Source of the DNA: Squalus acanthias
Lineage: Eukaryota
Assembly (NCBI GenBank): GCA_030390025.1
Contig: CM059432.1
Coordinates: forward strand, 90,832,001 to 90,896,000
Length of the DNA: 64,000 nt
Direction: 5' to 3'
Positions 8,479 to 39,800 of the stretch are shown here, in pieces; positions within the stretch are counted from its first letter, which is position 1; each line of letters opens with the position of its first letter. A program made the position numbers and the translations under genes. The notes beneath the pieces are model-generated. The model saw only the letters and a list, made by a program, of their open reading frames with translations. It was not told where the DNA came from and ran no database searches.

Positions 8479-10438
8479 ATGGCAACCTCAAGGGCGAAGG
8501 CCTCACCACGATTTGCTGATGACTCCCTCCATGCTCTTGTGGAGGGAGTCAGAGGTCAAAAGGAGGTACTCTTCCCATCCTCTGGGAGGAGGAAGCCACC
8601 ACAGCAGACCAAAGCTGTGTGGCTGCAAATTGCACAGGAGGTCAGCCCGAGATCGATGTGCATTCGAACCTGGGTGCAGTGCCGAAAAAGGTTCAATGAC
8701 CTGGTCCGCTCAGGGAAAGTGAGTATACCATCACCATTACCCTCAATCTGCTCCCCATCTCCTCTCATCACCAGCACTCTGCATTGTCAACCTACTCCTC
8801 CACATCCCGCTTTACCCTTACATCCCCTGCACCCTTAACCATCCCTCTCTCTCTATGTACACAATCACTTCACTATTCGACTATGCTGCCCTCACACTCG
8901 CTATCACTGTTATGCAATGCCAACAACTAACAACGCACAGGGAGGGCCCTTGGTATTGGCACCTCACTCCATCTTTGTCTCCTTCTAAGCATCCATGCTA
9001 TGGCTTCTCTACACTCACTCCATCATTCTCACTCAAACTCCACTTGTCTCCCTCATTGTAGGAAAAGAGAGCCCACAATAAGAGGGAGAGGGCTAGGACA
9101 GGAGGAGGGCCACCTTCAATTGCCCATTTGACCAACGCTGAGGAGGCTGCCCTCGAAATAATCGGAGGTGATGAGGATCTGGAAGTGGGGAAGGTCAGAC
9201 GGGCGCATCAGAGCAAGCTGGTGACAGAATAGATTTGCATCTCTCTCATTTACATTGCATGAGTGACTGATATGGCTTCTGATGCTCATACAGATTGACT
9301 TATGATCTGCACTATTCCATGTGCATGCTTCATTAATATCACGTGTAACTCATGCCTTTACTCCCCCACAGGACCATTGACAGCCCCCCTCCCCGCTGTC
9401 CAGGAGTAAGAGCCTGAGCCAGAAGACTCCTCAGAGGAACCTGCAACCTCTGAGGGCGCAGCGTCAGCAGATTTAAGTGCACCCAGCACCAGCGCAGATA
9501 CGCACACCTCGGTGGGACCTTCGGGACATAGAGTGGTGTTGTCACCTGGTGTATCACAGCTCACAAGTGAGCATCAGCTGATGGTGGAGACAGGGACAGC
9601 AGTGGAGAGTCCTCGTCGGAAGCCACAGGGCGCTCCCAGCTTTGCTCAGCTGCATGTCAACCCTGTGCCTCCGGGTCCATCCAGAAAGAGAGCGGTGCTG
9701 GAACTCCAGGAACAGGTGCAGGAGTCTCTGGCAGGTTTTGTCTCCAGGGTTACTACAAGTGTGGAGAGGATGGAGGAGTCCATGTCTAACATGAGCAGTG
9801 CCTTTGAGGAGGCAATGGCGCATGAACGCACCAACACGGATAGGATGGCAACCTCCATGGAAAGGATGGCTACCTCCGTGGAAAGGATGGCTACGGTCAT
9901 GGAGGAAATAAGTCGCCAGAGTCAGGAAAACATGGTGAATGTTAAGAATAGACTGACATCTCTGGAGGAGCGATGGGCAGCTATTGAGCAGAGACACCAG
10001 AGCTTCATGGGAGTCCTTTTGAGTAGGACTGCCACTTCAGATACGGGTCCTCATGGCCCCCCTGATGTGCAGCAAGGTGCTGTCAAGCCACTTGCTAGCA
10101 CTGAAGTGGGACTGACCCATAAGAGGGATGTTGGTGGCAGGCAACAAGGAAGTGGGGGCTCCTCTCCAAGTGCTCACACTCCCATGCCACTGAGTAGCCC
10201 TCGGTCAGAGCCCCACCAGAGTCCTCACCCAACTGAGATGGGCGTCTCAGCCCCTGCACAAAGGCAGGAGGAGCAGACTGTTGCCGAGCCCTCACAGGCT
10301 CGCAAACCCAGAGGAGGCCCGCCAAAGGTGTCGAAGCAGGAGCAGCATGAAAGTGAGCAAGGTGCCTCCACATCTGCTGAAGCCACAGGGGAGGCACCAC
10401 GTAGAAGCACGCGTAAGAGGAAGATTAAGCACAATTAG
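8479..10438 (+). pseudogene. Harbinger Myb/SANT (trihelix) DNA-binding protein gene, spliced and partly disrupted
   Basis: Exon 8479-8718 (PRFADDSLHALVEGV...W..IA..V...RTWVQCRKRFNDL, donor GTGAGT); exon from 9062 (EKRAHNKRERARTGGGP); long final exon with a coiled coil and basic PRRSTRKRKIK tail. Confidence 0.8.
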
Positions 10439-10684
10439 TCACGATTGTCTTGTTTTCTTTAATATTTGACATTGTCATCCTTTTGTGAATGGATTAAACA
10501 GAAGTGATGGCAAACAGTCGAAGTTCTGGCCTATGTGATCTCGGAAATGGAAGTTCCACATTGAGGGCTCAGGGCGACTTGCATTTGTAATGATGGTGGT
10601 CAGAGTGATAGGAAACCACAGGTTCTTGTACATTGTGTATGGTGTGTTAAGAAGGTGCCAGCCACATTTGTTTGATTCATCTAC

Positions 10685-11880
10685 TTAAGCGAATCTGGCA
10701 AAGATTAGTGCATCCCTTGCATCATGGGCAGCAATGTGCTCGCGTGCTGCTGGAACTGGCGCATCCGCCTCCGCAAGGTCTTCCTGCTCCTCCTCCTCAT
10801 TTGAGGAGGCTATGCGCTGAGCCACTTGTTCCTCAGGCAGCTGCAAGTCACGATGCTGTGCGATGTTGTGCAGTGCACAGCAGACCACGACGATTCTGGA
10901 GACCCTGGCTGCTGAATACTGTAGGGCTCCACCTGATCTATCAAGGCATCTGAATCGCATCTTCAGCAAGCCGATGGTTTGCTCGATAATGGATCTGGTT
11001 GAAATGTGGCTGGCATTGTAGCTCTCCTCAGCATCGTTCGATGGCCTCCTCAACGACGTCATCAGCCACGTCTTCAGGGGATAGCCCTTGTCTCCAAGTA
11101 GCCACCCAGAAAATTGGTTTGGCGGATTGAAGAGTGGAGGCACACTAGACTGCCGCAGGATGAACGAGTCATAGCAACTGCTAGGGTACTTCGCGCAAAC
11201 ATGCAAAATGTCCATCCTGTGGTTACACACCAGCTGCACGTTGAGGGAGTGGAACCCCTTGCGGTTGACAAAAACAGCTGGGTTGTGATGGGGTGCCCTA
11301 AGGGCCACATGTGTGCCGTCTACGACGCCCTGCACCCTTGCCATATTTGCAAAGCCAACCACACCCGCGGTTACACTTGCTTGATCCGTCGAGAAGTGTA
11401 TGTAATTGTGCGCCTTGGCAAAGAGGACATCGGTTACCTGCGTGATGCAAGTGTGGGCGGCCGACTGGGAGATGCCGCTGATGTCTGCTGATGAGCCCTG
11501 GAAAGACCCTGAAGCAAAAAAATTGAGGGCGGTGGTGACTTTGACAGCCACTGGTAAGAGGTGTCCACCCGTTCCTCTGGGCTCCAGGTGTTGGTGCAGC
11601 ATTGCGCAGATGTCAGCGACTACCTCTCGCGAAAGTCTCAGCCTCCTTTGGCACTGCTGCTCAGTCATGTTGAGGGAGGTCATCCTCTGTCTGTAAACCC
11701 TGTGTTGGGGGTATCTCCTGCGGTGACGAGCATCCTTTTGCCCTGTGCACCATCAGGTGGCTGAGCAGGAGGTTGGCGCTCCTGCTGTTGGTGTTGCTGT
11801 TGTGCCTGGTTCTGCTGCTGCCGCGGCTGCTCGTCCTCCGAATCTGAGGACCAGGATGAAAGGAAATAAATGGTTCCCAT
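10685..11880 (-). pseudogene. Harbinger (HARBI1-like) DDE transposase, one frameshift near the N-terminus
   Basis: ORF 10685-11683 with [26 protein letters not shown] and [16 protein letters not shown]-terminal part in ORF 11680-11880. Confidence 0.9.
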
Positions 11881-18973: not shown

Positions 18974-19149
18974 ATGACAGGAGAGCCAGATGGCCTTCAG
19001 GCCAGAAAAAGGTAGGTCCGTGGGTAGGTCCGATCTCGGGAGTGGCAGTGGTCCAGGCTAGTTTTTACCTGTGGTCTCCTCTTCTGCTGTATTGCCAGTT
19101 GATACTGGGTGAAGCGTGCACAGCGTACTGTCCTAAAATGATAAATGGG

Positions 19150-21198
19150 GTCCTCAACCGTGGCTAACAAGGGAAATTAGGGATAGCATAAGATCCAAGG
19201 AGAGGGCATATAAATTGGCCAGAAAAAGCAGTAACCCTGTGGATTGGGAGCAGTTTAAGATTCAACAAAGGAGGACAAAGGGATTAATTAAGAAGGGGAA
19301 AATAGAATACGAGAGTAAGCTTGCAGGGAACATAAAAACTGACTGTAAAAGCTTTTATAGCTATGTGAAGAGAAAAAGATTAGTGAAATCAAGCATAGGT
19401 CCCTTGCAGTCAGAATCAGGGGAACTTATAATGGGGAACAAAGAAATGTCAGACCAATTAAATACATATTTTGGTTCTGTCTTCACAAAGCAGGACACAA
19501 ATAACCTCCCAGAGATGTTGGGGAACATAGGGTCTGATGAAAGAGAGGAACTGAAAGAAATCAGTATTTGTAGGGAAATGGTGTTAGGGAAATTGAAGGG
19601 ATTGAAGGCCAATAAATCCCCAGGGCCTGATAATCTACATCCTAGGGTACTTAAGGAAGTGGCCCTAGAAATAGTAGATGCATTGCTGATCATCTTCCAA
19701 CATTCGATGGAATCTGGAACAGTACCCATGGATTGGAGGGTAGCTAATGTTACCCCACTATTCAAAAAGGGTGGTAGAGAGAAAACGGGGAATTACAGAC
19801 CGGTAAGCCTGACATCGATAGTGGGGAAAATGCTAGAGTCCATTATAAAAGATGTAATAGCTGAGCACTTGAAAAACAGTGACAGGATCGGACAAAGTCA
19901 ACATGGATTTACAAAAGATAAATCATGCTTGACTAATCTACTGGAATTTTTTGAGAATGTAACTGGTAAAATAGATAAGGGAGAACCAGTGGATGTGGTG
20001 TATTTGGACTTCCAAAAGGCTTTTGATAAGGTCCCGCATAAGAGATTAGCGTGTAAAGTTAAGGCACACGGGATTGGCGGCAAGGTATTGACTTGGATAG
20101 AGAACTGGTTGGCAGACAGAAAGCAAAGAGCTGCAATAAACGGGTCTTTTTCTGAGTGGCAGGCAGTGACTAGTGGGGTACCGCAGGGATCGGTCCTTGG
20201 ATCCCAGCTATTCACAATATATATTAATGATCTAGACAAGGGAACTAGATGTAATATCTCCAAGTTTGCAGACGACACAAAGCTGGGTGGGCGTGTGTGC
20301 TGCGAGGAGAATGCTGAGAAACTCCAGGATGATTTGGACAGGTTGGGTGATTGGGCAGAAGCGTGGCAGATGCAATATAACGTGGATAAATGCGAGGTTA
20401 TCCACTTTGGTGTCAAAAACAGAAAGGCAGATTATTATCTGAATGGCAATAGATTGGGAGAAGGGGAAGTGCAACGAGACCTGGGTGTCCTTGTGCACCA
20501 GTCGCTGAAGGTAAGCATGCAGGTGCAGCAGGCGGTTAAGAAGGCAAATGGTATGTTGGCCTTCATAGCGAGAGGGTTTGAGTACAGGAACAAGGATGTC
20601 TTGCTGCAGTTGTACAGGGCCTTGGTGCGACCATACCTTGAGTGCTGTGTGCAGTTTTGGTCGCCTTATCTGAGGAAGGATGTTCTTGCCATGGAAGGAG
20701 TTCAGCGAAGATTCACAAGGCTGATACCTGGGATGGCAGGAATGACGTATGAAGAGAGATTGGGTCGATTGGGCTTATACTCGCTGGAGTTTAGAAGAAT
20801 GAGAGGGGATCTCATTGAAACTTATAAAATTCTGACAGGACAGGACAAACTAGATGCAGGAAGGATGTTCCCGATGGTCGGGGAGTCCAGAACCAGGGAT
20901 CACAGTCTAAGGATAAGGGGTAAGCCATTTAGGACAGAAATGAGGAGGAATTTCTTCACCCAGAGAGTGGTGAACCAGTGGAATTCTCTGCCACAGAAGG
21001 CAGTAGAGGCCAATTCATTAAATAGATTCAAGAAGGAGTTGGATATATTTCTTAAGGCTAAAGGGATCAAGGGATATGGGGAGAAAGCAGGGACAGGGTA
21101 CTGAATTTGGATGATCAGCCATGATCGCATTGAATGGCGGAGCAGGCTAGAGGGGCCGAATGGCCTACTCCTGCTCCTATCTTCTATGATTCTATGTA
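19150..21198 (+). mobile_element. Young 5'-truncated CR1 LINE
   Basis: Contains an uninterrupted RT frame and a CR1 3' UTR ending in TTCTATGA repeats. Confidence 0.93.
19215..21104 (+). CDS. CR1 ORF2 reverse transcriptase, C-terminal 629 aa (no endonuclease)
   Basis: KSPGPD, NYRPVSLTS, LDFQKAFDKVPH, GVPQGSVLG, KFADDTK and FFTQRVV in one open frame. Confidence 0.9.
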   Translation: MARKSSNPVDWEQFKIQQRRTKGLIKKGKIEYESKLAGNIKTDCKSFYSYVKRKRLVKSSIGPLQSESGELIMGNKEMSDQLNTYFGSVFTKQDTNNLPEMLGNIGSDEREELKEISICREMVLGKLKGLKANKSPGPDNLHPRVLKEVALEIVDALLIIFQHSMESGTVPMDWRVANVTPLFKKGGREKTGNYRPVSLTSIVGKMLESIIKDVIAEHLKNSDRIGQSQHGFTKDKSCLTNLLEFFENVTGKIDKGEPVDVVYLDFQKAFDKVPHKRLACKVKAHGIGGKVLTWIENWLADRKQRAAINGSFSEWQAVTSGVPQGSVLGSQLFTIYINDLDKGTRCNISKFADDTKLGGRVCCEENAEKLQDDLDRLGDWAEAWQMQYNVDKCEVIHFGVKNRKADYYLNGNRLGEGEVQRDLGVLVHQSLKVSMQVQQAVKKANGMLAFIARGFEYRNKDVLLQLYRALVRPYLECCVQFWSPYLRKDVLAMEGVQRRFTRLIPGMAGMTYEERLGRLGLYSLEFRRMRGDLIETYKILTGQDKLDAGRMFPMVGESRTRDHSLRIRGKPFRTEMRRNFFTQRVVNQWNSLPQKAVEANSLNRFKKELDIFLKAKGIKGYGEKAGTGY

Positions 21199-24985: not shown

Positions 24986-25317
24986 CAGCTGAATGGATGG
25001 TCTTAATCTTAGTGGCAAAGAAGTCCATAAGCCCCTCGCACTTAATTTTGGACAGGGCTGGGCAGAAAGGCTTAAGGAGATGGTTAGAAGTGGAGTAAAG
25101 AAGCTGGGGGGTTATCTTTGCTCTCCAGATTGATACTGAAGTAGTGTGCAGCTTTGAGAGAGGAGAGTGAAGCCCAATAGTGTTTGATGTGGTATAATAA
25201 GAGAAAATGCTGGAAACATTCAGTAGCTCAGGAAGCACCTGTGGAGAGAGAAACAGAGTTCATGTTTCAGGTCGATGTCCTTTCATCAGAACTCTGATTT
25301 GTTTACGGAGATGGTAT

Positions 25318-26330
25318 TGTAAGGGGTTTTCTCCGACACTGGTCCCCCGTTACACACAGTTCTTGGACGTCAGGATTTATAAGAACAAAATACACACGGC
25401 ACAGGGTTTTGGCTCAACCTTTGATTCGTTTGTTTATTGAACACACACACACAATTACTTCCCTAGTATAAATCACTATGATTTATATTCGGCTAACAAC
25501 CCCAAAATACAAACCCCTACGCAAGGGTCATTTGCATCGACACAGTTAAACCCGTCCGCGATTTGACTGTTACATATAAAGTTACTCAGATTCAATCACA
25601 AAAACCCTTATTGTGATCTGACGGAAACTTACAAACTTACTCAGACTCAATCACAAAAGCCCCCTCTATGATTTGACTGAAACATACAATCACCACTCCC
25701 GATCGGCTGTCTCCTGGAGTTTATTGTAGGCCCGAATCTTTCTGCTCGCTATGCTTGCGTTAGCTCCCCACACCGACTCTCTTCGAAGTGGCTTTTCCTT
25801 TGAACCAAAACCAACTTGCAATCTTGAAACACATTTCCTGACCCTTCCTGTGCACACGATGGCCGTATCAAAATGTGTGAATGTCTCTAGCCGAGAACTC
25901 TTGATGGCTAATTGTCCCTCGTATTGTCCATTGATTACTTGGGCACCGACTGTCTGTATTGAGGTTCTTTCTGACAATGCAACCTTCCCAAGGTGACTGC
26001 ATATGCTAATTGTTGTTTTCTGTTTGCATTTGTATTCAAATGGTTCAGGGCCCGGCCCATTATCTAGGCCTGCACTGATACCAGCTTGGTCCAAGGTGAA
26101 CAATGTTACCCCTTAAGGTAAATGAATATGCGTAAATGTTCCTTTTCAGAAGCATTCGTATTTTAGATTGTCTGTGAATATGATATCCAGTCTCTTGATG
26201 GTTCGTAGCTTCGGCTGCAATGTTGGAATTATCCCTTTATTGCCCATCTCTTTTTGCGGGCTGTGCAGTTCTGTTTTTTTATATTTCATAGTCCAATTTT
26301 TACCGTTGTGGGGGAGGAACGGATCCTACA
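25318..26330 (-). repeat. 3' LTR (1013 bp)
   Basis: Direct repeat of 34517-35578; ends TGTAAG...CCTACA on the + strand; carries an extra internal short tandem duplication around 25585-25640. Confidence 0.95.
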
Positions 26331-26343
26331 TCTCCCACCTTTA
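26331..26343 (-). promoter_or_regulatory. Polypurine tract
   Basis: Minus strand reads AAAGGTGGGAGA directly abutting the TG of the 3' LTR. Confidence 0.8.
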
Positions 26344-26512
26344 ATATCTCTTACATTAGAGATATTACTCCCGTCCATTCTTCTGCCATGGAGAGTGGAT
26401 TGTTCGTCCCAGCCAAATCTCACATTCCTTTTTTTTTACACATTCTATACATTTGATTCTATAATCCCAAATCCCCTTTATACAGTCTTTCCTGTTTTTC
26501 CCTTTTTACCCT

Positions 26513-28778
26513 TCATTTCGTTTTACATGATAACTTGAACAGATACAACACCATAATTAATTGCACAATTATCAGTACATGTGAGGCAATTCGGATCCAG
26601 GGAGGACTTTCAATATTAAACCAAATGTCCCACCAAGGTGGGGTGGTCATTTCCCTGATCTCCTCTCGCATTTCTCTGTTTTCCTGCTGGTGAGTGTAGT
26701 AATGTTTTTGGGAAAGCTCCACATCCTTTACCAATTTTGTCAAATGCTCAGGTAATGGCAGGATATCTTACCCAAAATGTGATATATAATCTTGGAGGTT
26801 TGGTAAAATACCACTCACTGTGAGATTTACTGAGGTGTGATCTGAAATAGGGATTATCCTTTCCTGTGCCACTTGAACCTCTATCAGGGGTTTAAAACAA
26901 AAGGTCGAGTCATAAATTGGACATCAGGTATCATTGTGTACCCTATACTGATTCGCACTGGTGGTGACACAGTAGGTTCCGTTCTCCTCATAACCAAGCT
27001 GGGGCGGGACGTGCCTCTGAGCCATCACCTCCATGGTACAGTTGATCGGTTGTGCGCTTTCAGATTCAAAACCACATGCCGGTCAGTCGAACACATTCAG
27101 GTGGTGTGGGCACAACACTGCATGTGCACTCCTTTCCTGACATCCCTTCAGATCCATGCCGGTCATGGAGTTCCCCCAATTAACCACATACGGAGTCGCC
27201 CCATGATGCCGCACATATACCCCATTTCGGATAACACCAACATTTTCCACCCGATATACTGGCACTGGCCGTTGTGACTGACCCACTACTGGTATCCTGA
27301 GAACTATTCCCATTATGGTTTAGTTGTACTGATCACAAACAATTGGGACTGGGTACGCTTCGGAGGCCAACCGTAGCTGGCACGGGTTCATGAGATTGTC
27401 ATAAGTGCTCAAGGCTCTTAGGTGTCTGTTGTCAATCCATAATGGTATGCGACCTTGCTCTAGATCCTCTAAATTACTACACCCCTCGTTTAATAACCAG
27501 GCACCGTACATAACACACGCATCATTTTGCGCATTCCGGTCCTCCTTTATTAAGTTGTTTATGGTCTGGGCGTGAGTTTCCAGCTCAGCTATCAATTCTT
27601 TCAGGTGAATGGTCATTACTTGGTCTTCTCGTAATTCCTGACCCTCAATCTCATTACCCTCCCCCAGTAACCTCTTTAGCTGATCCCGTAAGGTATTGAC
27701 CTGCGTTTGCAGCTGGGCATCATCTATACCATTGGCCAGTGACGTCCCCGTATTAAACACCGTGGTCGCGTCATTGATCAATCCCCTCTTCCATCTCCCC
27801 AAACCGGTGTGACTGTTGTCAGCTCGTTTATACAAACCCTTCTGAATTTCATCCCCATAGTTCAACTCGTAGAATTGCCGGAACATTTCTTTTAATAGTT
27901 TCTCGTACAATTTTTCCGTTTCAGCTGGGCACCACCGGAGTAGCCGTACCTTTGTCAAATTAAGGATGACAGATGCTACCTCATAATGCACGTCATAGTA
28001 TAACACCTTCCCTGTTGGAATCAGTACTAACCCATTCCTAGGTCCGGGTGTCGTTATGGGGCACTTAACCTCTTTATCCCGTGTCTTTGGGGCTGATGGT
28101 AGGGGCATCTTAAAGTGCGCTACTAGTAGCATTGACTGCGTTTGGAGGATCTGGGACCACACACGAATCGAAACTCTGAGTCCAGCCTATTCCAGATCTG
28201 GAATCTTGCCATTGCCGTTTAAAAGCGATGGACACCCCCTGCTGGCATTTACGTTCCGATCCTCCCACACACACATAAACCCCTTGTTCCTCCTTCCACC
28301 ACTTGTCCCATCATAATTTCACACCCCCTTTTGTCCTCACAATCGATCTGTACGAGTCATTCCCCAATCTTTCCTAATCCGTGGATTCATTACCCTTTGC
28401 CTTGTCTGTTTTCTGTAGCCACCACCACCATCCCACGGAGATACTTCCCCAGCATTCTAGGCACACTTGCCTTCCCTTGTTCACCAGTACCTTTTTGGTG
28501 GTGATATTTAATTTGGGACACGGCACTGATGCCTCACTGAATTTGTAACCAGTGTAATTGGAATATTTAGTGGAATTTGACCCCAACCAACCCGGCCATT
28601 TTCCCTCATGGAAGTATGTAGCTATCCCGTCAGTGCCCCGTGCTCTACCTCCCTGTGTTACGGTGGGCCTGGCTCCTCCCATACACCCATAAGCAAATGA
28701 CATCTCGATGTCGCCTCGCTCCATCTGTCCTGAACTGATCAGGATTACCAACAGGCCCAGCCACAGAGTGCATTCCAT
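26513..28778 (-). pseudogene. env: env-like class I fusion glycoprotein gene (signal peptide, Ig-like domain, furin site, HR1, Cys-rich region, HR2, W-rich MPER, TM), disrupted
   Basis: MECTLWLGLLVILISSG signal; RWKR|GLINDATTVFNTGTSLANG; heptads LQTQVNTLRDQLKRLL; PPWWDIWF followed by TM IASHVLIIVQLIMVLYLF; several NxS/T sites; pieces 28374-28907, 27320-28162, 27083-27313, 26513-26743. Confidence 0.85.
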
Positions 28779-28802
28779 CCTGCATCCTCCGTTCGACTCG
28801 CC

Positions 28803-28830
28803 TCTGCAAATAAAAGAAAAGAAAAATAGC
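28803..28830 (-). promoter_or_regulatory. env splice acceptor
   Basis: Minus strand TTTTTCTTTTCTTTTATTTGCAG|AGG, 25 nt upstream of the signal-peptide ATG at 28778. Confidence 0.75.
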
Positions 28831-29110
28831 AACACTCTGTGAGAGGTCTTCCCTCCACAGGTCAAACTTAGGTTATATACATAGTATACATGCTGTGATT
28901 GCTGCAATCACCGCGTCCCTTTTTCCTTACTGTCCGGTTGGGACCTCATGCGGCTCAGGGTCGGTGTGCGAGGAGGCGTCCAAGGCACCCTAGGTTGGGG
29001 TGTTCGACTACTCCTTCTCACCGCTCCACTCTCTGGGTTTTCGTCATCATCCCACAACATGGGAGAAAACTTACATCGGTCAAACTCATGATCGTTCCCT
29101 GGGTTCTGGT

Positions 29111-32100
29111 TCATTTTATTCCTCTCTTCCCGGGGTCATAGAGTTTACATTGATTAGTGTGGAACCACTTCGTCCGTTTTGGCAGCTGCACTGCATAAAC
29201 CATAGGGCTTGCCTTGTCCACTATACTGTACGGCCCCATGTACAGTGGCTCGAAAGCCCCTACCCGGGCATAATTTCTCACCATGACCTGGTCCCCTACC
29301 TTCCACTCCTGTACTTTCTGTGGCTCTAACAGCATTCTATTCTTCTGGTGCTGGCTTCCCATGTTATTTGCGGCTTCCCATTGTACTTTCTTCAAGATCT
29401 CATACCTGTCCCGGTTGACCTCCCTCGTTTAAGCTTCAATCAGGACCGGTACCAAGACATGAGTCGGAGTCCTCATCGCCCTACCGGTCATCAGCTCATA
29501 CGGAGAGTGTCCTGTGCTTTTGGAGAGGTTGGCCTGATATTCATGAGAACTAGAGGCAGGACCTCGTCCCATTTATTTTAGGTACCCCCGTATCACCTTC
29601 TTAAGCCTTTCCTTTAAGGTCCGGTTCATCCTTTCCACTATTCCCGATGATTGGGGGTTGTGGACCACACGCCATTTTCCCTGTGTCCCTAAAAGTTTCA
29701 GGGTGGTCTTCATGACTTGTCCTGTGAAATGGCTCCCCTGATCTGATTCCACTACCTGGGGCAATCCCCATCGGGAGAACATGTCCCTTACTAGGATCTT
29801 AGCCGTGTTTAACGCTGTGGCTGTTCGACAAGGGAAGGCCTCAACCCACTTAGAGAAAACCTCCACCAACACCAGACAATACTTGTTGCCTGCTTTTGTG
29901 GTGGACAGGGGCCCAATGAAGTCTATTTGTATAGAACGCCATGGTCTCTCTACCCTCCTAACGTGTCCCAACGGTGCCTTTCTACGGTGGGGGTCTGGAT
30001 TATTCGCAGTGCACACTAGGCACTCCCTGCAATATTCCTTCACCTCTTCCCTGAGATGAGGCCACCAACCCACCTCCTCCACTTTCTTCCAGGTAGTTTC
30101 CGGCCCTGGATGCCCAGCTCCCGGACCCCCGTGAGCTAGCTGCATAAATTCCTCCCGGTACTGTGTGGGCACGATCCACCTTTCCCCTTTAAACAGCATC
30201 CCCTCTTTGACCACTATATCTGCTGCTCCAAAAGGACCCTCAATTGGTCCCCATCTACCCTTTTCTTAATCACGGTTTTTAAACCCGCATCTTGTGGTCA
30301 TAAGAGATATGGAGAGCCCACAGGAGGTGAAGTTGCCCCCAGACCTGGGGGCAACTTCACCTCCTGTGGGCCCTCCATATCACTTATGGCCACGATCTGT
30401 CCAGATCGGTACGGTTCCCAAAGTACTCCCTCCCTGGCCCCCTTTTTTGCCAACTCATCGGCCTTCTGGTTACCTTTCAATTTAGGCTCAGTTTTTGAGT
30501 GTGCCTTTACTTTCTGGATGTAATACTCCCCTTTATTGCCCATAACGCCCAGAATTGTGTTCAGCAGTGGGGCGATTACTAACAGTTTCCCGTCGGCGGA
30601 CTTGAATCCTCGTCTAGCCCATATTGCCAGATATTCAGTGCAAGAATTGCCCGTGAACATTGAGTCTGAGCATATTGTGTAGGAGGTTGGGAATTCCTCG
30701 GGATGTGTGACCACATAAGCTACAGCCGCCAGCTCGGCCTCCTGTGCGCTCAGTGTGCTGGGGAGTTTGATAGCTTTCTCTATTCCAGCCCCTGGGTCAT
30801 AAATTCCACACCCTGTCTTACACTCTCCGTTTGTCATCGAACTGGACCCATCCACATATATATCGCTCCCTGTCGGATGTTGCCCGGCCCGGAATCCCAC
30901 ATCTACATCCCCTATCCCTTCTACCGTGCACACATGATTCGTCCCTGGATAAATCATGTTCAAGGCCAGCTTAGGTTCCACCAATCTTTCCACCCTCAGG
31001 TTCATCTGGGAGAGTAGCAATGTCCAGCTGGCAATACGATTGCTACTCACTGTCCCATCTTTTATCCTCCCATCCAATAGCATCTGTGGCAGGGTATGAC
31101 ATGTCAGTAAGGTTATTAAAGATGACCCCGTAAATAATTGGAAACATTTGACGGCCCAATAGTTCGCCAAAAGGTGTCTTTCGCAGTTCGAGTAACCCCT
31201 CTCTACATCTGTCAGGACTCGGGAGGCATAAGCTACTGGCCTCAACTTGTCATGCCGTTCTTGGAGCAACACTGCACTCAAACTATCCCCAGTAGCTGCT
31301 ACCTCCGGATAAAAATCTTCGTTCCTGTTTATTGCTCCTAGTGCGGGTGCAGTTTGTAAATTTTCCTTTAGGCGAGTAAATGCCTCCTTACAACTCTCAT
31401 CCCATTCCCATCCTACTCCTTTCCTAAGGAGTCTAAGCAAAGGGGCTGCCGTGGCTGCATAGCCTTCAATAAAATCCCTGCAATACCCTGTCATACCAAG
31501 AAAAGATCTCACCGCAGTTACACTCTTTGGAGCGGGTAGTTCCTGCACTGCCCTCCTCTTCGCCTCGTCTATAGCCCTTTCCCCTGCCCTAATCATCAAT
31601 CCTAAGAATTTCACATCCTCCTGTCCTATTTGGGCTTTCTTGGGGTTTGCCTTAAACCCTGCCTCCCCCAACAGCTTTAGTAGCTCATCCAGTAGTGGCC
31701 CGTGGTCCTCTGCACTTTCTGAGAATAATAATAGGTCATCCACATACTGGATGAACTGGCTAGGCTGACTGAAATTCTTTAAAGCATTAGCCATACACTG
31801 ATGGAAAATCAAGGGACTGTTATGAAACCCTTGTGGGAGGCACATCCACGTGTACTGTTGCCCTTTGAATGTAAAGGCAAATTTATACTGTCCTCCCGTC
31901 TTACTGGAATAGACCAGAACCAGTTAGCTATGTCCAATACAGTGAACGTTGTTGCCTCCGCAGGAATATTCCCTATTAGATTGGCTACTGCTGCTACTGT
32001 GGGCGCGCATGCTGGAATACCTTTATTAAGAAACCGGTAGTCTACCATGGCTCTCGATGACTGATCGGGTTTCTTAACTGGCCATAGGGGTGAATTTACG

Positions 32101-32816
32101 TGGGTCGCTATCGGCCTCAGTACCCCTTATTCCACGAGGGAGTTCAGTGCAGTTTCCAAGTCCTTCTCTGCCTCCTGGGGAAAACTATACTGTTTCTGAG
32201 GTCGCGACATTGGGTCCCCGTGTACCTCCACCTCTACCCCCGTTACCCTACCACAGTCATGTCGGTGAGTGGCGAACACTGCGAGATTATTTTTCACATA
32301 CCCCCGATACCTTTCCGGGGTGCTACGGACCAATTGTTCCAAGTCATAGCTACCCTTTGGTTTCATAGTACAGGCGCTACCTTTCACTTTCTCCGCCTTG
32401 GGGATAACTCGAACTTCCTCAGGTTTATCTGAACCAACCGCCCCCCATAGACAGTGGTTTCTCATATCCACGATCACATAGTGGACCAGCATAAAATCAG
32501 CTCCGAGGACCCCCGCGCCGGGCTGATCCCATTGCATCAGTACACATTCCCACTTAGTGACAAGGGGTCCTAACCCTATAGACAAAGGTTTCGATACCGC
32601 CCCAGTCTGCTCATTCCCTGTGAAACCCACTAACTTAAACGGGACCCTGCTCGACCATGGAGAAGTGGTCGGGTTTGGTGAGTGAAGCACCGTACTGTAA
32701 GCTCCGGTGTCCACGAGATACTTTCCCCGAACAGCCTCTACCTTGATCTCTACACAAGGTCTGCCCCACTCATCGTAGGCGAGCGGGCACAGGTACTCGG
32801 GCTGAGTGCGTCCTAG
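29111..32816 (-). pseudogene. pol: pro-pol: aspartic protease, RT, tether/RNase H-like fold, RNase H, integrase (stops and frameshifts)
   Basis: LVDTGA; NSPLWPVKKPD, VDYRFLN, LPQGFHNSP, YVDDLL; PVAYASR; IYVDGSS...AQEAEL...CSDS...VKAH...GNQKADELAK; H-H-C-C, IDFIGP, SDQGSHF, VERMN, GPY. Confidence 0.92.
30294..30393. repeat. 100-bp near-perfect palindrome between RNase H and integrase
   Basis: 49-bp arms with 3 mismatches and a 2-nt loop (30343-30344). Confidence 0.9.
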
Positions 32817-34472
32817 TCATGGGGGAAGTGGGGGCGCGCTGGGCTTTTCACTACATACGGCAGCGTCCAGCTTTCCCTGATCTTTGCCCATAACCTGCCG
32901 TAACGCGGTCACTAGAAGTTCCACTGGATCTTCTACCCTCTCCTTCTCCGCCTCTACTACCTGCGGTTTTGACCCTGAGGGACCCCTGTATCCTGGTTTT
33001 TCCCCTTTTGGGAACTTGCACTCCCTGTTCCAGTGTCCCATTCTCCAACAGTTAAAGCACGCCTGGGATCTGTCCACCTTACCCCCCCTCCTGCTTCCAT
33101 TCTTTTCTACCATCCACGCTTCCCTTCATCTCGTGCACTTTTCCCTTATGTTTATTCTCCTCCCCTCGGTCGGATTTAAAAGTCAGTTTCCTTAACACGC
33201 CTGGCTCTGTATTATTAACATCCTCGGAGTCGAACCATGATTCCGCCCTAGCCCTGATCCGTGGCAGGCTGTTAGCCACTAGGGTCCTCGACCAATGATT
33301 CCTGGAAGCCCCTAACAACTGTGCTTGGGCTAGATTTCTCCCCGTTGCTTTCAGATACACGGGCCACAACCTGTCTGCGAATGCAGCCGGTGCCTCGCCA
33401 GCCAGCTGTCTGGTCTGCTCGACCTGCAAGAACGGGCTGCCCTCGCTATATCCCAGCGCTATTAAAATTTCGTCCTTTACCCCATCCAGGGTACCCCCTC
33501 CTAACTTAGTGGTTGCCGACAAACCCTGGTACAACTTCCCATCTAGAGAGAACAGTATCAGCTTTTTCCGTTCGTCGTTGTCACAATTATTGATCCCCTA
33601 TCTGCTCTACATTGACAAAATGAACAGAGGCATCCCCTCCGTGCTTCAGTTTCGGCACACTGGCCAGCATTTCCTGCAACTGAAGGGACGTATAGGGAAG
33701 CACACAATCACTCTGCAATGGCCCCTGACCACCGCCTTTTGCTGTCGCAGGGGACACATCGGTCCCGGTGGTCCCTGTGCTTCCGGAGCCAGTCGAACCT
33801 CTCTATACTGGATCCCATCACCGGGCTCCTGTTCCTCCTCATCCCAGTCTACCCCAACTTCCCCTGGTGCCATGAGACAAACCATACCCCTGGCCCTGGA
33901 TAATGCTAGGGTCAACTTACGGATTTTTTCATTACAGGGCCCGTGATCGGCCTCTTCATGTACCCGGATTTTGGCTACCCTGTATGCCACCTTTATATCT
34001 TTTAACTGCTCCTCAGCCTTGCCAGCTCTCTCTGAGTTCCTATTACCTTCCTCACGCTGAGCCTGACACTGCCTTCTACTTTCGGTGACCTGACATTGCA
34101 GGTACTCTAACGTGTTTCTAGCTGTTTCTTCCTGCGCTTTTCTCTCCTGCCTTTCAAAGCTCAAATCTTTTATCAGCCGGTTCACTACGGCCTCTCTCTC
34201 TCCTGCCCTACTTTCTGATGCCTGTTTCTCTTTTCCTAAACGCTCAACTTTCTCCATGAGCATCTGAATTTGTTTCTGCATACATATTAGCCAAATCGCC
34301 TTTTCCTTCGATTTCTTATATACACTACTACCCGTCCACTCTACCGCTTTCTCATACGGACTGTCGAGTGTAACATTTCCCGCACCCAGTGCTCGGAAAT
34401 GTTTACTTTCCCAAACACATACGAGGATATCCTATCCTCCATCGCGGGTTTCCTGCACTTAGCCCTGTCCAT
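32817..34472 (-). pseudogene. gag: gag with an N-terminal coiled coil and a CCHC zinc knuckle (frameshifted)
   Basis: First ATG after the PBS is at 34472; coiled-coil ORF 33646-34281; capsid-like helical piece 33079-33534; CFNCWRMGHWNREC knuckle; Pro-rich end PSAPPLPP. Confidence 0.8.
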
Positions 34473-34493
34473 AATTTTGTTCTAAACCTTGAC

Positions 34494-34511
34494 GTCCTGC
34501 CGCAGTCACCA
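34494..34511 (-). promoter_or_regulatory. Putative primer binding site
   Basis: TGGTGACTGCGGCAGGAC begins after a 5-nt spacer (GAATC) inside the 5' LTR end; the cognate tRNA was not identified. Confidence 0.6.
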
Positions 34512-34516
34512 GATTC

Positions 34517-35578
34517 TGTAATGGTTTTCTCCGACACTGGTCCCCCGTTACACACAGTTCTTGGACGTCAGGATTTATAAGAACAAAATACACACGGCAC
34601 AGGGTTTTGGCTCAACCTTTGATTTGTTTGTTTATTGAACACACACACACAATTACTTCCCTAGTATAAATCCCTATGATTTATATCAGGCTAACAACCC
34701 CAAAATACAAACCCCTACGCAAGGGTCATTTGCATCGACACAATATGACAGTTAAACCCGTCCGCGATTTGACTGTTACATATAAAGTTACCCAGACTCA
34801 GTCACAAAAGCCCCCTCTATGATTTGACTGAAACATACAATCACCACTCCTGATCGGCTGTCTCCTGGAGTTTATTGTAGGCCCGAATCTTTCTGCTCGC
34901 TGTTCTTGCGTTAGCTCCCCACACCGACTCTCTTTGAAGTGGCTTTTCCTTTAAACCAAAACCAACTTGCAATCTTGAAACACATTTCCTGACCCTTCCT
35001 GTGCACACGATTGCCGTATCAAAATGTGTGAATGTCTCTAGCCGAGAACTCTTGATGGCTAATTGTCCCTCGTATTGTCCATTGATTACTTGGGCACCGA
35101 CTGTCTGTATTGAGGTCCTTTCTGACAATGCAACCTTCCCAAGGTAACTGCATATGCTAATTGTTGGTTTCTGTTAGCATTCGTATTCAAATGGTTCAGG
35201 GCCCGGCCCATTGTCTAGGCCTGCACTGATACCAGCTTGGTCCAAGGTGAACAATGTAACCCCTTAAGGTAAATGAATTAAGCAGCAGAAGACCCAATAT
35301 TCACACATAATAGCTTTCTAAAACCCCTCCTGAGTTTCCAACCAAAATAACTCCCCTCATTTCCTCTCTCACCCTCAGAAATGTTCCTTTTCGGAACCAT
35401 TCGTATTTTAGATTGTCTGTGAAAATTGATATCCAGTCACTTAATGGTTCGTAGCTTCGGCTGCAGTGTTTGAATTAACCCTTCATTGCCCATCTCTTTT
35501 TGCAGGCAGTGCAGTTCTGGGTTTTTATATTTCATAGTCCAATTTTTACCATGGGGGGGGGGAGGAACGGATCCTACA
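34517..35578 (-). repeat. 5' LTR (1062 bp) with a 100-bp foreign insertion
   Basis: Direct repeat of 25318-26330 differing by a few percent by eye; 35279-35378 has no counterpart in the other LTR. Confidence 0.95.
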
Positions 35579-36149
35579 GTATGATCTGTGATAAAGGCCA
35601 TGGGAATAGAGAGGCCACAGGAGATGGCAAGGTAAAGTATGGGTAGGAGAGTTTATAGACAGAGAGGTTTAAGGGGGATAGGAAGTCAGTGTATTCAGAG
35701 GAAAGAGAGCAAGGGGAGCTCAGATGAATATTAAATCACTGAGGATTAGAAGTCACTCAGTGCTGAGGGTGAGAGAGGAAATGAGGGGAGTTATTTTGGT
35801 GGGAAACTCAGGAGGGGTTTTAGAAAGCTATTATGTATGAATGTTGGGTCTTCTGTTGTTTACTACTGCTTCCAGCCTGTGCTTTTGTTTGTTTTTTTAG
35901 CAAAAATAAATGAAAAGGTGATGATAAAAAGTAGGGTGTTAAAGTTTGCAAGCTGTCAGTTCAGACAGTAACATTAAAAAGAAACTGCAGTAATTTAAAT
36001 TGTCACAGGATTTTAAGAACTATAAAGTACAATTACTGAAGTTTCAGTCTTTCATCATTCCTGTATTTTATCCTTTAAGGATGGTGGTTAGAAGTAGCCT
36101 AGGACTGTTACCTTTATACAGAAAATTTCCCTGTGGTGGCATCATGAAT

Positions 36150-36875: not shown

Positions 36876-39800
36876 GAACTCCACCTCCTGCGACCAGACC
36901 TGCAGCCTCAGAGCAGGGCGACCATGGCTCTCCCAGTGGCCTTCAAGGTCATTATGATCCTCAATTTCTTCGCCAGCTGATCCTTCCACTCTGCAGCAGG
37001 AGACATAGCTAACATCTCCCAGTTCTCTGCCCATTGCTGTATCCAGGAGGTAACTGAAGCTCTCTACACCAGGAGAAGGGACTACGTTTTCTTCTCTCTG
37101 AGCAGAGAGAAGCAGGACAAGCGCTCAAGTGGCTTTGCCAGGATAGCGGGATTCCCCATGGTGCAGGGCGCCATCGACTGCACACACGTGGCTTTGCGGG
37201 CGCCACATAACAATCCTGAGATCTTCCATAACCGAAAAGGCTACCACTCACTTAATGTGCAGTTGTTGTGCGACCACCCACAGCGCATCCTGATGGTCAG
37301 TGCCCGCTATCCTGGCAGCAGTCATGATGCCTTCATCCTGTGTCAGTCCGGTGTGCCAGCAATCTCCCAGCCACCACGTCAAACCCAAGGGTGGCTGCTT
37401 GGAGACAAGGGCTATCCACTCTGCATCTGGCTGATGACTCCCCTCTGCAACCCCACCACTCGTGCCCAAAACTCATATAATGACAGCCATGCTGCCAACA
37501 GGAACATCATCAAGCAGACCATCGGGCTGCTGAAGCACCGGTTCCGCTGCCTTGACCGCTCGGTGGCGCCTTCCAGTACTCAGCGGAGCGGGTGTCCCAT
37601 TTCGTGGTGGTCTGCTGCATGCTTCACAACTGGGCCATCATGAGGGCTCAGCCCTTGCCACCAGGGATTGCATGACTACCTCAGGAAGAGGACGAGGGAG
37701 AGGAGGATGAGGAGGAAGGCAGGAGGCAGGCATGAGCTGTCTGTGAACACCTCATCAGAGTCTGATTCCAGTGAAGGAAACCCCAGATCCCCGTTGCTCA
37801 CCACATCCTCATCAACCATATCCCCATCATACCACCCCTCTGTCACAGAATATCAGTGTCCTCCTGGGCACAAAGCTGAAATGATAGCCACCACAAAACA
37901 AAGATTCCAAACAAAATTAATAAATTTATCAATAATCAATTCAAACATACTATATCCACTAATCACCCTTGTGCAGTCCCTTAGTGCCTGTCGTTCGGGT
38001 GCCATTTCCTGATCTAGTGCTCCTACGAAGTGCTCCCCCAGTGGCTGCAGCATGGCTGGTGGAAGGCTGCTGAGTTTCCGTGGGGGAGACTTCAGATGGC
38101 CTTGCAGGACGACCTTGAGCAGCTCTGGACTTAGAAAGCCCACCTGTAGACTGCACCACCTCGGCATGGGCGGCAGCAGTCTGGGCTGGCTGGCTGCCAG
38201 GCAGCAGCAAGGGCAATGGCAGAGTGGCAGTGGTGGGAACAGGAATGCTGTCATCCTGAGAGAGGACAGCAGGTTCCTGCTCCACAGACCCACTGCCACT
38301 TTCCCAGGGCGGTGCCTCAGCATTCCTAGCAATCTGTTGGAGGACAGATTGCTGGCCTGCTGTAACACCCTGAAAGCCCTGTTCGACACTGGTAAACCCA
38401 ACCACAATGGCAGCAGTCAGAGCTTGGGTGGTTTCAAGCTGAGACTGCAGGACAGTGGTTTGCGCTTCCGCTGCGGCACAAAATGTTGGGTCGCTTCCGC
38501 CTATGCTGCAGTGGCAGCCGCAACATCGCCCATCACATGCAACATCATGTCTGGGTCAACACTGTCTCCCCTGGAGTGTTCTATCATTTCAAGCCTGGAA
38601 ATCATGGGCTCCAAGCTCTGCGCAAAGACCTGGCCAATGTTGGAAGCGGACTCCTCAATGCTCCCTGACATTGCCAAGAGGCTCTCCGGCAGGCTTGCCA
38701 TTGCACCTAGCAATTTGGTGTGCATGCCCATCACCCTTCTTCTGAAGGCCACTCCATCAAGGTCCTCATCTGAGTCATGTGCAACAGAACTAAATTATGC
38801 GCAGTGTCAGTTTCTGAGCTGGTATGTGGGAGTGTCAGATTCAGTGACGCTGTGTCTTCTACCGCCTCACTCTCCTCCATCGCCTCAGGGACAGGCTCTG
38901 CAGCTGCTTGTTCTTGGTTATCTGAAAGTAGAAAGGCACAAGGGTCGGGTTGTGATGAGGGAAGGGGTTAGAGGGGCGGGGGGAGTGCAAGATATGCATG
39001 CATACAGCATCAGCAGCTTGTAAGTGAGAAGAGATTGTGGGATGAGGGGGAAGTGGGATGTGAGAAGAAGGATTAGGAATGAGCATACCGTTGTTGTCCC
39101 CAAGGTCTTCAACTTCGCCCGTTGCCACGGCTTCGGTGACTTCCCCTCCAATGATGTCGAGCACTCTCTCTTCCACTTGACTCAAGGCCTGTATCGCGGC
39201 TTGGCCACCACCCGCCTGTATGACGCTGCTCCCGGCGATTGTGCGTGACCTTGGCCTGCAATAGAATTTAAACTAATTTGGCAGGGGGGATGGGCACCAG
39301 GATGTAACATTAGAAAGGGGAAATAAAGTGTTCAAAGGATTGGGAGAGGCAGAGAGCATTAAAGTAAGAAATAGTAAGGTATTAGGGGGGGTCAAACTGA
39401 GAGAGAATACGGGATGGTCTAAGATGGGTTTACAGTGTATATATGTGAACACACGAAGCGTAGTAAATAAGGGAAGTGAGCTGCAGGCACAAATAGCCAC
39501 ATGGGAATATGATGTTGTGGCAATAACTGAGACCTGGCTCAAAAAAGGGCAGGATTGGTTATTAAATATTCCTGGTTATAATGTGTTCATAAAAGATAGG
39601 GAAGGAAAGATAGGAGGTGGTGTGGCAGTATTGGTCAAGGAGAATGTTACAGTGTTGGAGAAGGAGGATGTCCTGGAGGGGTCAAGGACAGAATCTATAT
39701 GGCTAGAGTTAAGAAATAAAAGAGGTGCCATTACACTACTAGGTGTATTCTATAGACCACCAAATAGTGGGAAAGATATGGAGGAGCAAATTTGCAGAGA

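Follow-up and report, generated by a model that had tools for sequence, protein, structure and literature searches.

Does a shark provirus whose envelope resembles a paramyxovirus fusion protein have to be a lokiretrovirus, or can such an envelope accompany an ordinary retroviral polymerase? The question is raised by a 64,000-nucleotide stretch of Squalus acanthias DNA (GenBank assembly GCA_030390025.1, contig CM059432.1, forward-strand positions 90,832,001 to 90,896,000), hereafter the window, numbered from its first letter. It contains an endogenous retrovirus (ERV) of 10,261 bp on the minus strand, running from 35578 to 25318, that a first-pass annotation had described as a complete lokiretrovirus-like (Loki-like) provirus. 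The reading that we put forward, and hold with good though not complete confidence, is that this is a dead full-length ERV whose reverse transcriptase (RT) groups with canonical retroviruses, likely in the snakehead retrovirus (SnRV)-like group of cartilaginous fish, and whose Env is predicted to be a paramyxovirus-F-type fusogen with a probable immunoglobulin (Ig)-like N-terminal head.

Placement of the reverse transcriptase

For comparison, 81 RT-bearing proteins were collected. In a quick tree of 69 rows, made after removal of 14 short or near-duplicate ones, the unbroken piece of RT from the window itself paired with paralogue L032 on the retrovirus side. A more careful IQ-TREE analysis of 30 rows comprised 29 hand-picked members of the 81 and L032, standing for the family, with Gypsy as outgroup. 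It recovered the published topology for Loki, the Loki rows (100/100) being sister to a 100/99 clade that includes the family, ERV-L-like rows and epsilon/gamma-like rows. In this panel, which has no foamy or class II rows, the RT lies inside the canonical-retrovirus clade. Monophyly of the family with Loki was rejected by the approximately unbiased (AU) test (p-AU 0.009).

RT identity was 74% to a Logan protein, 51-53% to frog and coelacanth ERV Pol, 37% to epsilon/gamma-like sequences, 35% to Loki and 32-33% to Gypsy. The Loki motif PFGY[AS]NSPAEF is replaced in the family by LPQGFHNSP, which had 0 occurrences in the examined part of the Loki supplement of Wang & Han; the Loki references P0010 and P0042 bear RT motifs that the same part of that supplement contains 25, 26 and 46 times, in Loki proteins at the places inspected. 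A hand count of the first 132 RT residues against printed rows gave 65 identities to SnRV, with which the family shares RT motifs, and 43 to Loki-Xla. The closest relatives of the family are ERVs from sharks, frogs and coelacanth that likely belong to the SnRV-like group; because the SnRV-like rows form a basal grade only, that label draws on the hand count, the motifs and the literature.

Given the canonical position, the AU test and the missing Loki motif, the assignment to a Loki-like or new sister lineage in the first-pass annotation has to be given up, and with it the proposed widening of the Loki host range to chondrichthyans. Membership in Ty3/Gypsy (Metaviridae) was rejected, the RT being outside the Gypsy clade and pol having a tether plus RNase H and not a single RNase H.

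The predicted F-type envelope

The env region is laid out as follows, with the basis of each assignment in brackets.

28804..28825, minus strand: candidate env splice acceptor, pyrimidine tract plus AG (sequence)
28040..28778, minus strand: env N-terminal extension, a hydrophobic signal peptide and then a probable Ig V-like domain at about 28250-28520 (sequence, hidden Markov model, structure model)
27797..28039, minus strand: env F2-like segment (structural alignment, in which the start of F falls at model residue 49)
27785..27796, minus strand: furin-type site RWKR (sequence)
26459..27784, minus strand: env F1-like subunit with in-frame stops (structure model, sequence)

The F1-like subunit has a fusion peptide, heptad repeats A and B flanking Cys-rich domains, a transmembrane helix (about 26530-26600) and a short tail. 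The part following the furin site amounts to 422 codons up to 26518 plus about 20 to the stop, with 12 Cys; CX6CC was looked for in this part and was absent. The N-terminal part of Env does contain a CXXC. The long, Cys-rich post-furin region described by the first-pass annotation is thus confirmed. A gamma-type Env, with short transmembrane subunit, immunosuppressive domain and CX6CC, is ruled out by the roughly 440 post-furin codons and the missing motif.

Env was read with X at its 4 in-frame stops and modelled with AlphaFold2 from a 29-row alignment, giving a mean predicted local distance difference test score (pLDDT) of 68. Foldseek against PDB returned human parainfluenza virus 3 F as top match (E=2.1e-11) and 237 matches at E<=1e-3; every one of the matches listed was a paramyxovirus or pneumovirus F. 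A second aligner superposed 293 residues on post-fusion Nipah F (Z 12.1, root-mean-square deviation 5.9), with F matched from the N-terminal end as far as about residue 445, and Atlas features gave Baculo_F, Fusion_gly and Gypsy Env at 0.93-0.94. These results bear out the F-type envelope that had been proposed, the core being predicted from the model to have the paramyxovirus/pneumovirus F-type (class Ib) fold, with F2 and F1 in three domains. At the sequence level, Pfam found no Fusion_gly in Env and 31 of its 37 homologues, the one Baculo_F match being weak (E=0.001), a phmmer search of PDB with Env gave 0 matches, and an Env profile search gave coiled-coil-level matches only (E>=0.14).

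Foldseek against BFVD gave insect mononegaviral, baculoviral and paramyxoviral F among its matches, and three retroviral Envs: walleye epidermal hyperplasia virus 1 (WEHV1; 3.7e-9), walleye dermal sarcoma virus (WDSV; 6.8e-7) and feline foamy virus (2.2e-4). The two walleye entries that match the F-type model, Q9WHI8 and A4GTG3, are themselves predicted structures, and a literature search found no paper reporting an F-type match for WEHV1 or WDSV Env. Published work assigns epsilonretroviral Envs to neither the gamma nor the beta type. Cryo-EM has shown that foamy Env is F-like (PMC11468914). With foamy Env F-like and the predicted walleye Envs matching the model, the premise that a long F-like transmembrane subunit marks Loki does not survive, and an F-like Env is unusable as a criterion for calling an element Loki.

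Ahead of the F core lie about 240 residues with conserved Cys, Trp and G-x-Y-x-C motifs, of the kinds that mark strands B, C and F of an Ig V-set domain, interrupted by stops and by a frameshift near 28080-28126. Of the 15 N-termini aligned, 12 had a weak Pfam Ig_3 match (best E 0.009), CD8-alpha matched the N-terminal domain (E=0.002), and the N-terminal model aligned mostly to antibody V domains at Z 5-5.7, which is in the chance-level range. An Ig V-like domain in front of the F core is probable. Gamma-type Envs that carry Ig-like receptor-binding domains have been described (bioRxiv 2024.03.17.585361), and on that basis this head may serve in attachment.

Several observations weigh against the combined reading. 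The Env model has a predicted template modelling score of 0.49, with 143 of 556 residues below pLDDT 50, and Env has no sequence-level PF00523 match in Pfam, whereas Loki Env has one in the published work. The model of the Ig region is poor (pLDDT 42) and has no Foldseek match at E<=1e-3; its alignments all have Z < 6, and a phage tail protein ranked first. On the Pol side, SnRV, foamy and alpha-, beta- and lentiretroviral RTs are absent from the computed tree, only two Loki RT rows are in the panel, and the SnRV-like rows form no supported clade among the 30.

The Env homologues bear on how this envelope came to its polymerase. Of the 37 in a 50%-cluster library, 10 were looked up and 9 could be named (Pristiophorus, Mustelus, Chiloscyllium, Heterodontus, Pelodytes, Mantella and Xenopus tropicalis); Loki Env was not among the 10. 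Homologous Env extends across sharks, a skate and frogs, at identities from 59% down to 22%. One cluster (P0120) holds 16 annotated proteins of Mantella aurantiaca at >=90% identity, mostly of 677 aa, which suggests a recent expansion of a related ERV in this frog. The host genome also has a second Env family, 25-31% identical to the window's Env. An RT lies upstream in 5 of the 8 loci fetched, and no RT was found in the other 3; its best match was P0034, a Mustelus cluster (56-71%), in 4 loci and ambiguous in 1, and never Loki. P0034 falls in the same basal grade of the 30-row tree as the window family. Since the second Env family lies by a non-Loki RT and frog homologues of Env exist, the data favour a long-standing association of F-type Env with these retroviruses over a recent capture, the Env-RT linkage itself having been seen at loci of the shark genome.

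A recombinant, in which an SnRV-like Pol made a single recent capture of a Loki-type, foamy-type or mononegaviral F gene, is unlikely in our view but deserves to be taken seriously. Env swaps are common in anamniote ERVs, including an SnRV-related Pol with a gamma-type Env (bioRxiv 2021.11.23.469661), and Foldseek puts mononegaviral and baculoviral F above the retroviral Envs. Such a capture fits poorly with homologous Env spread over sharks, skate and frogs at 59% to 22% identity, with a second Env family whose upstream RT, found in 5 of the 8 loci, is a different one and not Loki, and with the lack of Loki Env among the 10 homologues examined.

The polymerase leaves room for two other views. 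The RT could belong to a basal canonical lineage apart from SnRV, nearer the root or the foamy viruses: the base of the retrovirus clade is without resolution in the 30-row tree, the best PDB matches of the RT are foamy (E 4e-50, ahead of murine leukaemia virus (MLV) at 3e-47), and foamy Env is likewise F-type. The 49% identity to SnRV over the first 132 RT residues (hand count) speaks against this, however, and the in-frame gag-pol stop, CCHC finger, N-terminal Env signal peptide and tRNA-Arg primer-binding site (PBS) are not known as foamy features, so that we think this placement improbable. Much harder to credit, and in our estimate very improbable indeed, is that the element is a lokiretrovirus (lokiortervirus), the first from a cartilaginous fish. 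Loki was present in 0 of 6 chondrichthyan genomes in the original screen, so such a find would be new, and the dual RNase H and F-type Env with an RXKR site are as expected of Loki; dual RNase H is however common to all retroviruses and hence not diagnostic, and F-type Env is not exclusive to Loki (foamy, PMC11468914; predicted WEHV1/WDSV). RT topology and the AU test, the identity to Loki of only 35% and the absence of Loki RT motifs all argue against it. A canonical, likely SnRV-like ERV with a predicted F-type Env remains the reading that we prefer.

Provirus structure, expression and copies

The remaining features of the element, listed from its 5' to its 3' end, are these.

35579..35582, no strand: target-site duplication (TSD) GTAT, right (sequence)
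34516..35578, minus strand: 5' long terminal repeat (LTR), TG...CA, holding a 94-nt insert missing from the 3' LTR (sequence comparison)
34494..34511, minus strand: PBS, 16/18 complementary to the 3' end of host tRNA-Arg(TCG) (sequence)
32817..34442, minus strand: gag, broken by stops and frameshifts (sequence, Pfam)
32812..32819, minus strand: in-frame gag/pol stop TGA, then CTAG, a likely read-through site (sequence)
32193..32816, minus strand: protease and linker, DTG at 32703-32711 (Pfam)
31396..32192, minus strand: RT core, YVDD at 31735-31746, with one stop and one frameshift (Pfam)
31000..31395, minus strand: tether, a degenerate first RNase H (PF17919 1e-21, PF17917 7e-15)
30436..30864, minus strand: RNase H (PF00075 2e-18)
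29114..30170, minus strand: integrase with H2C2, rve core and C-terminal GPY/SH3-type tail, stops inside (Pfam)
26331..26342, minus strand: polypurine tract, abutting the 3' LTR (sequence)
25318..26330, minus strand: 3' LTR, TG...CA (sequence comparison)
25314..25317, no strand: TSD GTAT, left (sequence)

The two LTRs, the GTAT TSD, the polypurine tract and the gag-protease-RT-tether-RNase H-integrase order given by the first-pass annotation were all located in the sequence or by Pfam. Its word complete is right in that all the parts are there; it is not right for the genes, each of which is broken by stops or frameshifts, so that the window copy is dead. Both LTRs (1,062 nt at the 5' end and 1,013 nt at the 3' end) have TG...CA ends on the minus strand. 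They differ at 48 of 953 aligned sites (Kimura two-parameter distance 0.052) and by three indels (the 94-nt insert, 55 nt and 8 nt); a divergence of 5% is moderate and not very low, contrary to the earlier description.

The 94-nt insert in the 5' LTR (window 35279-35383) matches, in inverted orientation and at 93% identity, host DNA at 35758-35862, which lies in the flank 180 nt beyond the end of the element; this points to an insertion templated locally once the provirus was in place. In the 3' LTR a 55-nt segment is tandemly duplicated (window 25542-25689), of which the 5' LTR has one copy. A 49-nt inverted duplication (window 30294-30393, 94% complementary, 2-nt spacer) separates RNase H from integrase and adjoins a frame change in pol. 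The flanks (window 9410-11752, 36981-38555 and 19137-21104) hold what we take to be Harbinger/HARBI-type transposase frames with partner open reading frames (ORFs), and many CR1-type LINE fragments.

Gag has a charged, probably coiled-coil N-terminus, a capsid-like middle and one CCHC zinc knuckle at 33012-33059. The Pfam domain order is zf-CCHC, protease, RT, tether, RNase H, integrase H2C2/rve and SH3-type tail. Matches were strong (E 1e-13 to 1e-22) for RT, RT_RNaseH (the tether), RNase H and both integrase domains, and weak (E 3e-6 to 1e-3) for protease, zf-CCHC and the SH3-type integrase tail. The protease-to-RT spacing, 173 residues as against 215 in one Loki row, is not discriminating.

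The PBS starts 5 nt inside from the 5' LTR end and was seen in 7 of 10 paralogues, in 3 of which the tRNA match is 18/18 and reads TGGCGACCGCGGCAGGAC. A search of the host genome for the complementary tRNA 3' pattern gave 429 matches (control, 0), and ARAGORN called tRNA-Arg(TCG) at both loci scanned. The tRNA-Arg(TCG) genes lie in long tandem arrays with a period of about 1.62 kb on host contig C26 (about 39.0-42.2 Mb), and the array unit checked also holds a tRNA-Ser(GCT).

The stop of gag is a TGA with CTAG after it in all 9 sequences with a junction anchor (8 of 10 paralogues and the window), as well as in one copy of a second subfamily. Protease and the CCHC finger share a frame in 3 of 5 measurable sequences, and 3 of 4 CCHC-protease spacings at or near 348 nt (paralogues and window) are multiples of three. 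UGA-CUAG is a known read-through context, so that Gag-Pol is likely produced by read-through of this in-frame stop. The junction, kept in both subfamilies, is UGA-CUAG here and not the MLV-type UAG. As for env, the pyrimidine tract and AG, 25 nt before the env ATG at 28778, suggest that it is likely expressed from a spliced RNA.

DNA searches of the 3.71-Gb host assembly scored the best 40 candidates per search, and copy numbers are therefore lower bounds. The env search gave at least 40 further matches at 87-95% (best 40 of 1,210 first-look candidates) and the RT search at least 39 at 93-96% (best 40 of 2,095). A protein search, with 150 candidates scored, gave at least 151 matches in two subfamilies, at about 85-92% (the window's own) and about 60-66%. 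Both ends were recoverable in 5 of the 10 paralogues fetched; in these and the window, the TSD was 4 bp in 6/6 copies, and LTR distances were 0.031-0.052. The corresponding age is poorly constrained, at 7-12 My (rate 2.2e-9) or 70-119 My (2.2e-10) with the two rates used in Han 2015 (PMC4422223). One paralogue (L053/L054, contig C17, about 19.295-19.309 Mb) appears to have taken up a further LTR-like element, nested both in its leader and within env.

Contigs from three other organisms span 30/30 bins of the env region at >=88% likeness, so that relatives occur in other species; a scan of viral contigs found no relative. The best named homologues come from Pristiophorus (59%, 54%), Rhinoraja (52%) and Heptranchias (Pol, 62%), in agreement with the cartilaginous-fish host that had been proposed.

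Taken together, these features would fit the following course for the ancestor of this dead copy. Reverse transcription would be primed by tRNA-Arg(TCG), to which complementarity was observed, and integration would leave the observed 4-bp TSDs. Gag-Pol would arise through read-through at UGA-CUAG, and Env, likely translated from the spliced RNA, would be cut at RWKR to give the F1-like subunit and an N-terminal one made up of the extension and F2. If the predicted fold is right, Env would refold from pre- to post-fusion form as in paramyxovirus/pneumovirus and foamy fusogens, and the Ig-like head may be a built-in attachment module replacing a separate H/HN/G protein. Reinfection or retrotransposition would have carried the family to many loci, where it later decayed.

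Comparison with known systems

A literature search that left most subscription journals outside found no report in which an F-type, Ig-headed Env is paired with a canonical, likely SnRV-like Pol. Wang & Han (2021, PMC7947760; 2022, PMC9040795) left four env-origin scenarios open and favoured separate gains of env by Loki and by canonical retroviruses, on the ground that canonical Envs had shown no similarity to F (PMC9040795). An F-type Env on canonical Pol in sharks, skate and frogs, with the predicted epsilonretrovirus and foamy matches, weakens that premise, and the question becomes testable by comparing Env and RT trees. A speculative proposal, to which we give somewhat less than even weight, is that F-type Env is the ancestral retroviral Env, kept in Loki, foamy viruses, SnRV-like shark and frog ERVs and fish epsilonretroviruses, the gamma- and beta-type short-transmembrane Envs being later replacements or reductions; the window family would then have added its Ig V-like receptor-binding head.

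The provirus itself is of a known kind in a known host class, and what stays of interest is the F-type Env on a canonical-retrovirus Pol. SnRV-like ERVs are a widely distributed clade (Huo, Xu et al. 2018, PMC6001957) that includes most coelacanth ERVs (PMC4977317) and CmiERV lineage I of the elephant shark, a chimaera (Han 2015); because the group was already known from a chimaera, the host-range record is ordinary. The 12-nt PBS motif of the window family was not found in the CmiERV supplement.

SnRV itself is said to have a tRNA-Arg PBS and a coiled-coil Gag, as Hart et al. reportedly described in 1996. It has a 3' accessory ORF region that the window element lacks, env being followed by the 3' LTR after about 130 nt, and the window element also differs in that the env ATG and signal peptide adjoin env. 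The Env tail of SnRV counts 136 residues (PMC12193657), as against a short tail here, and SnRV Env was not among the best 50 BFVD matches listed. Repbase ERV4 (Chong et al. 2014, PMC4299795) is likewise a non-class-I/II ERV with env; membership was rejected, since ERV4 has 5-bp TSDs and neither zinc finger nor GPY/F, whereas the window element has 4-bp TSDs, one CCHC and GPY.

Loki, defined by RT position (PMC7947760), shares with the window element the LTR-gag-pol-env layout, the tether plus RNase H, and an F-like Env with signal peptide, RXKR site, coiled coil and transmembrane segment (PMC7947760, PMC9040795). Grouping of the integrase with CGIN1 and of RNase H with foamy viruses also counts as a Loki trait. 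The window RT however lies outside the Loki clade, no smc gene was seen in the element, and its Env differs in having no PF00523 match and in the N-terminal extension with the probable Ig domain. Foamy Env has a membrane-anchored leader and a different receptor-binding domain, whereas the extra module of the window Env is N-terminal and Ig-like. With paramyxovirus/pneumovirus F and the foamy, WEHV1 and WDSV Envs, the window Env, which is ERV-encoded, has only 8-16% sequence identity, but a predicted F-type core is common to all of them over model residues 49-460.

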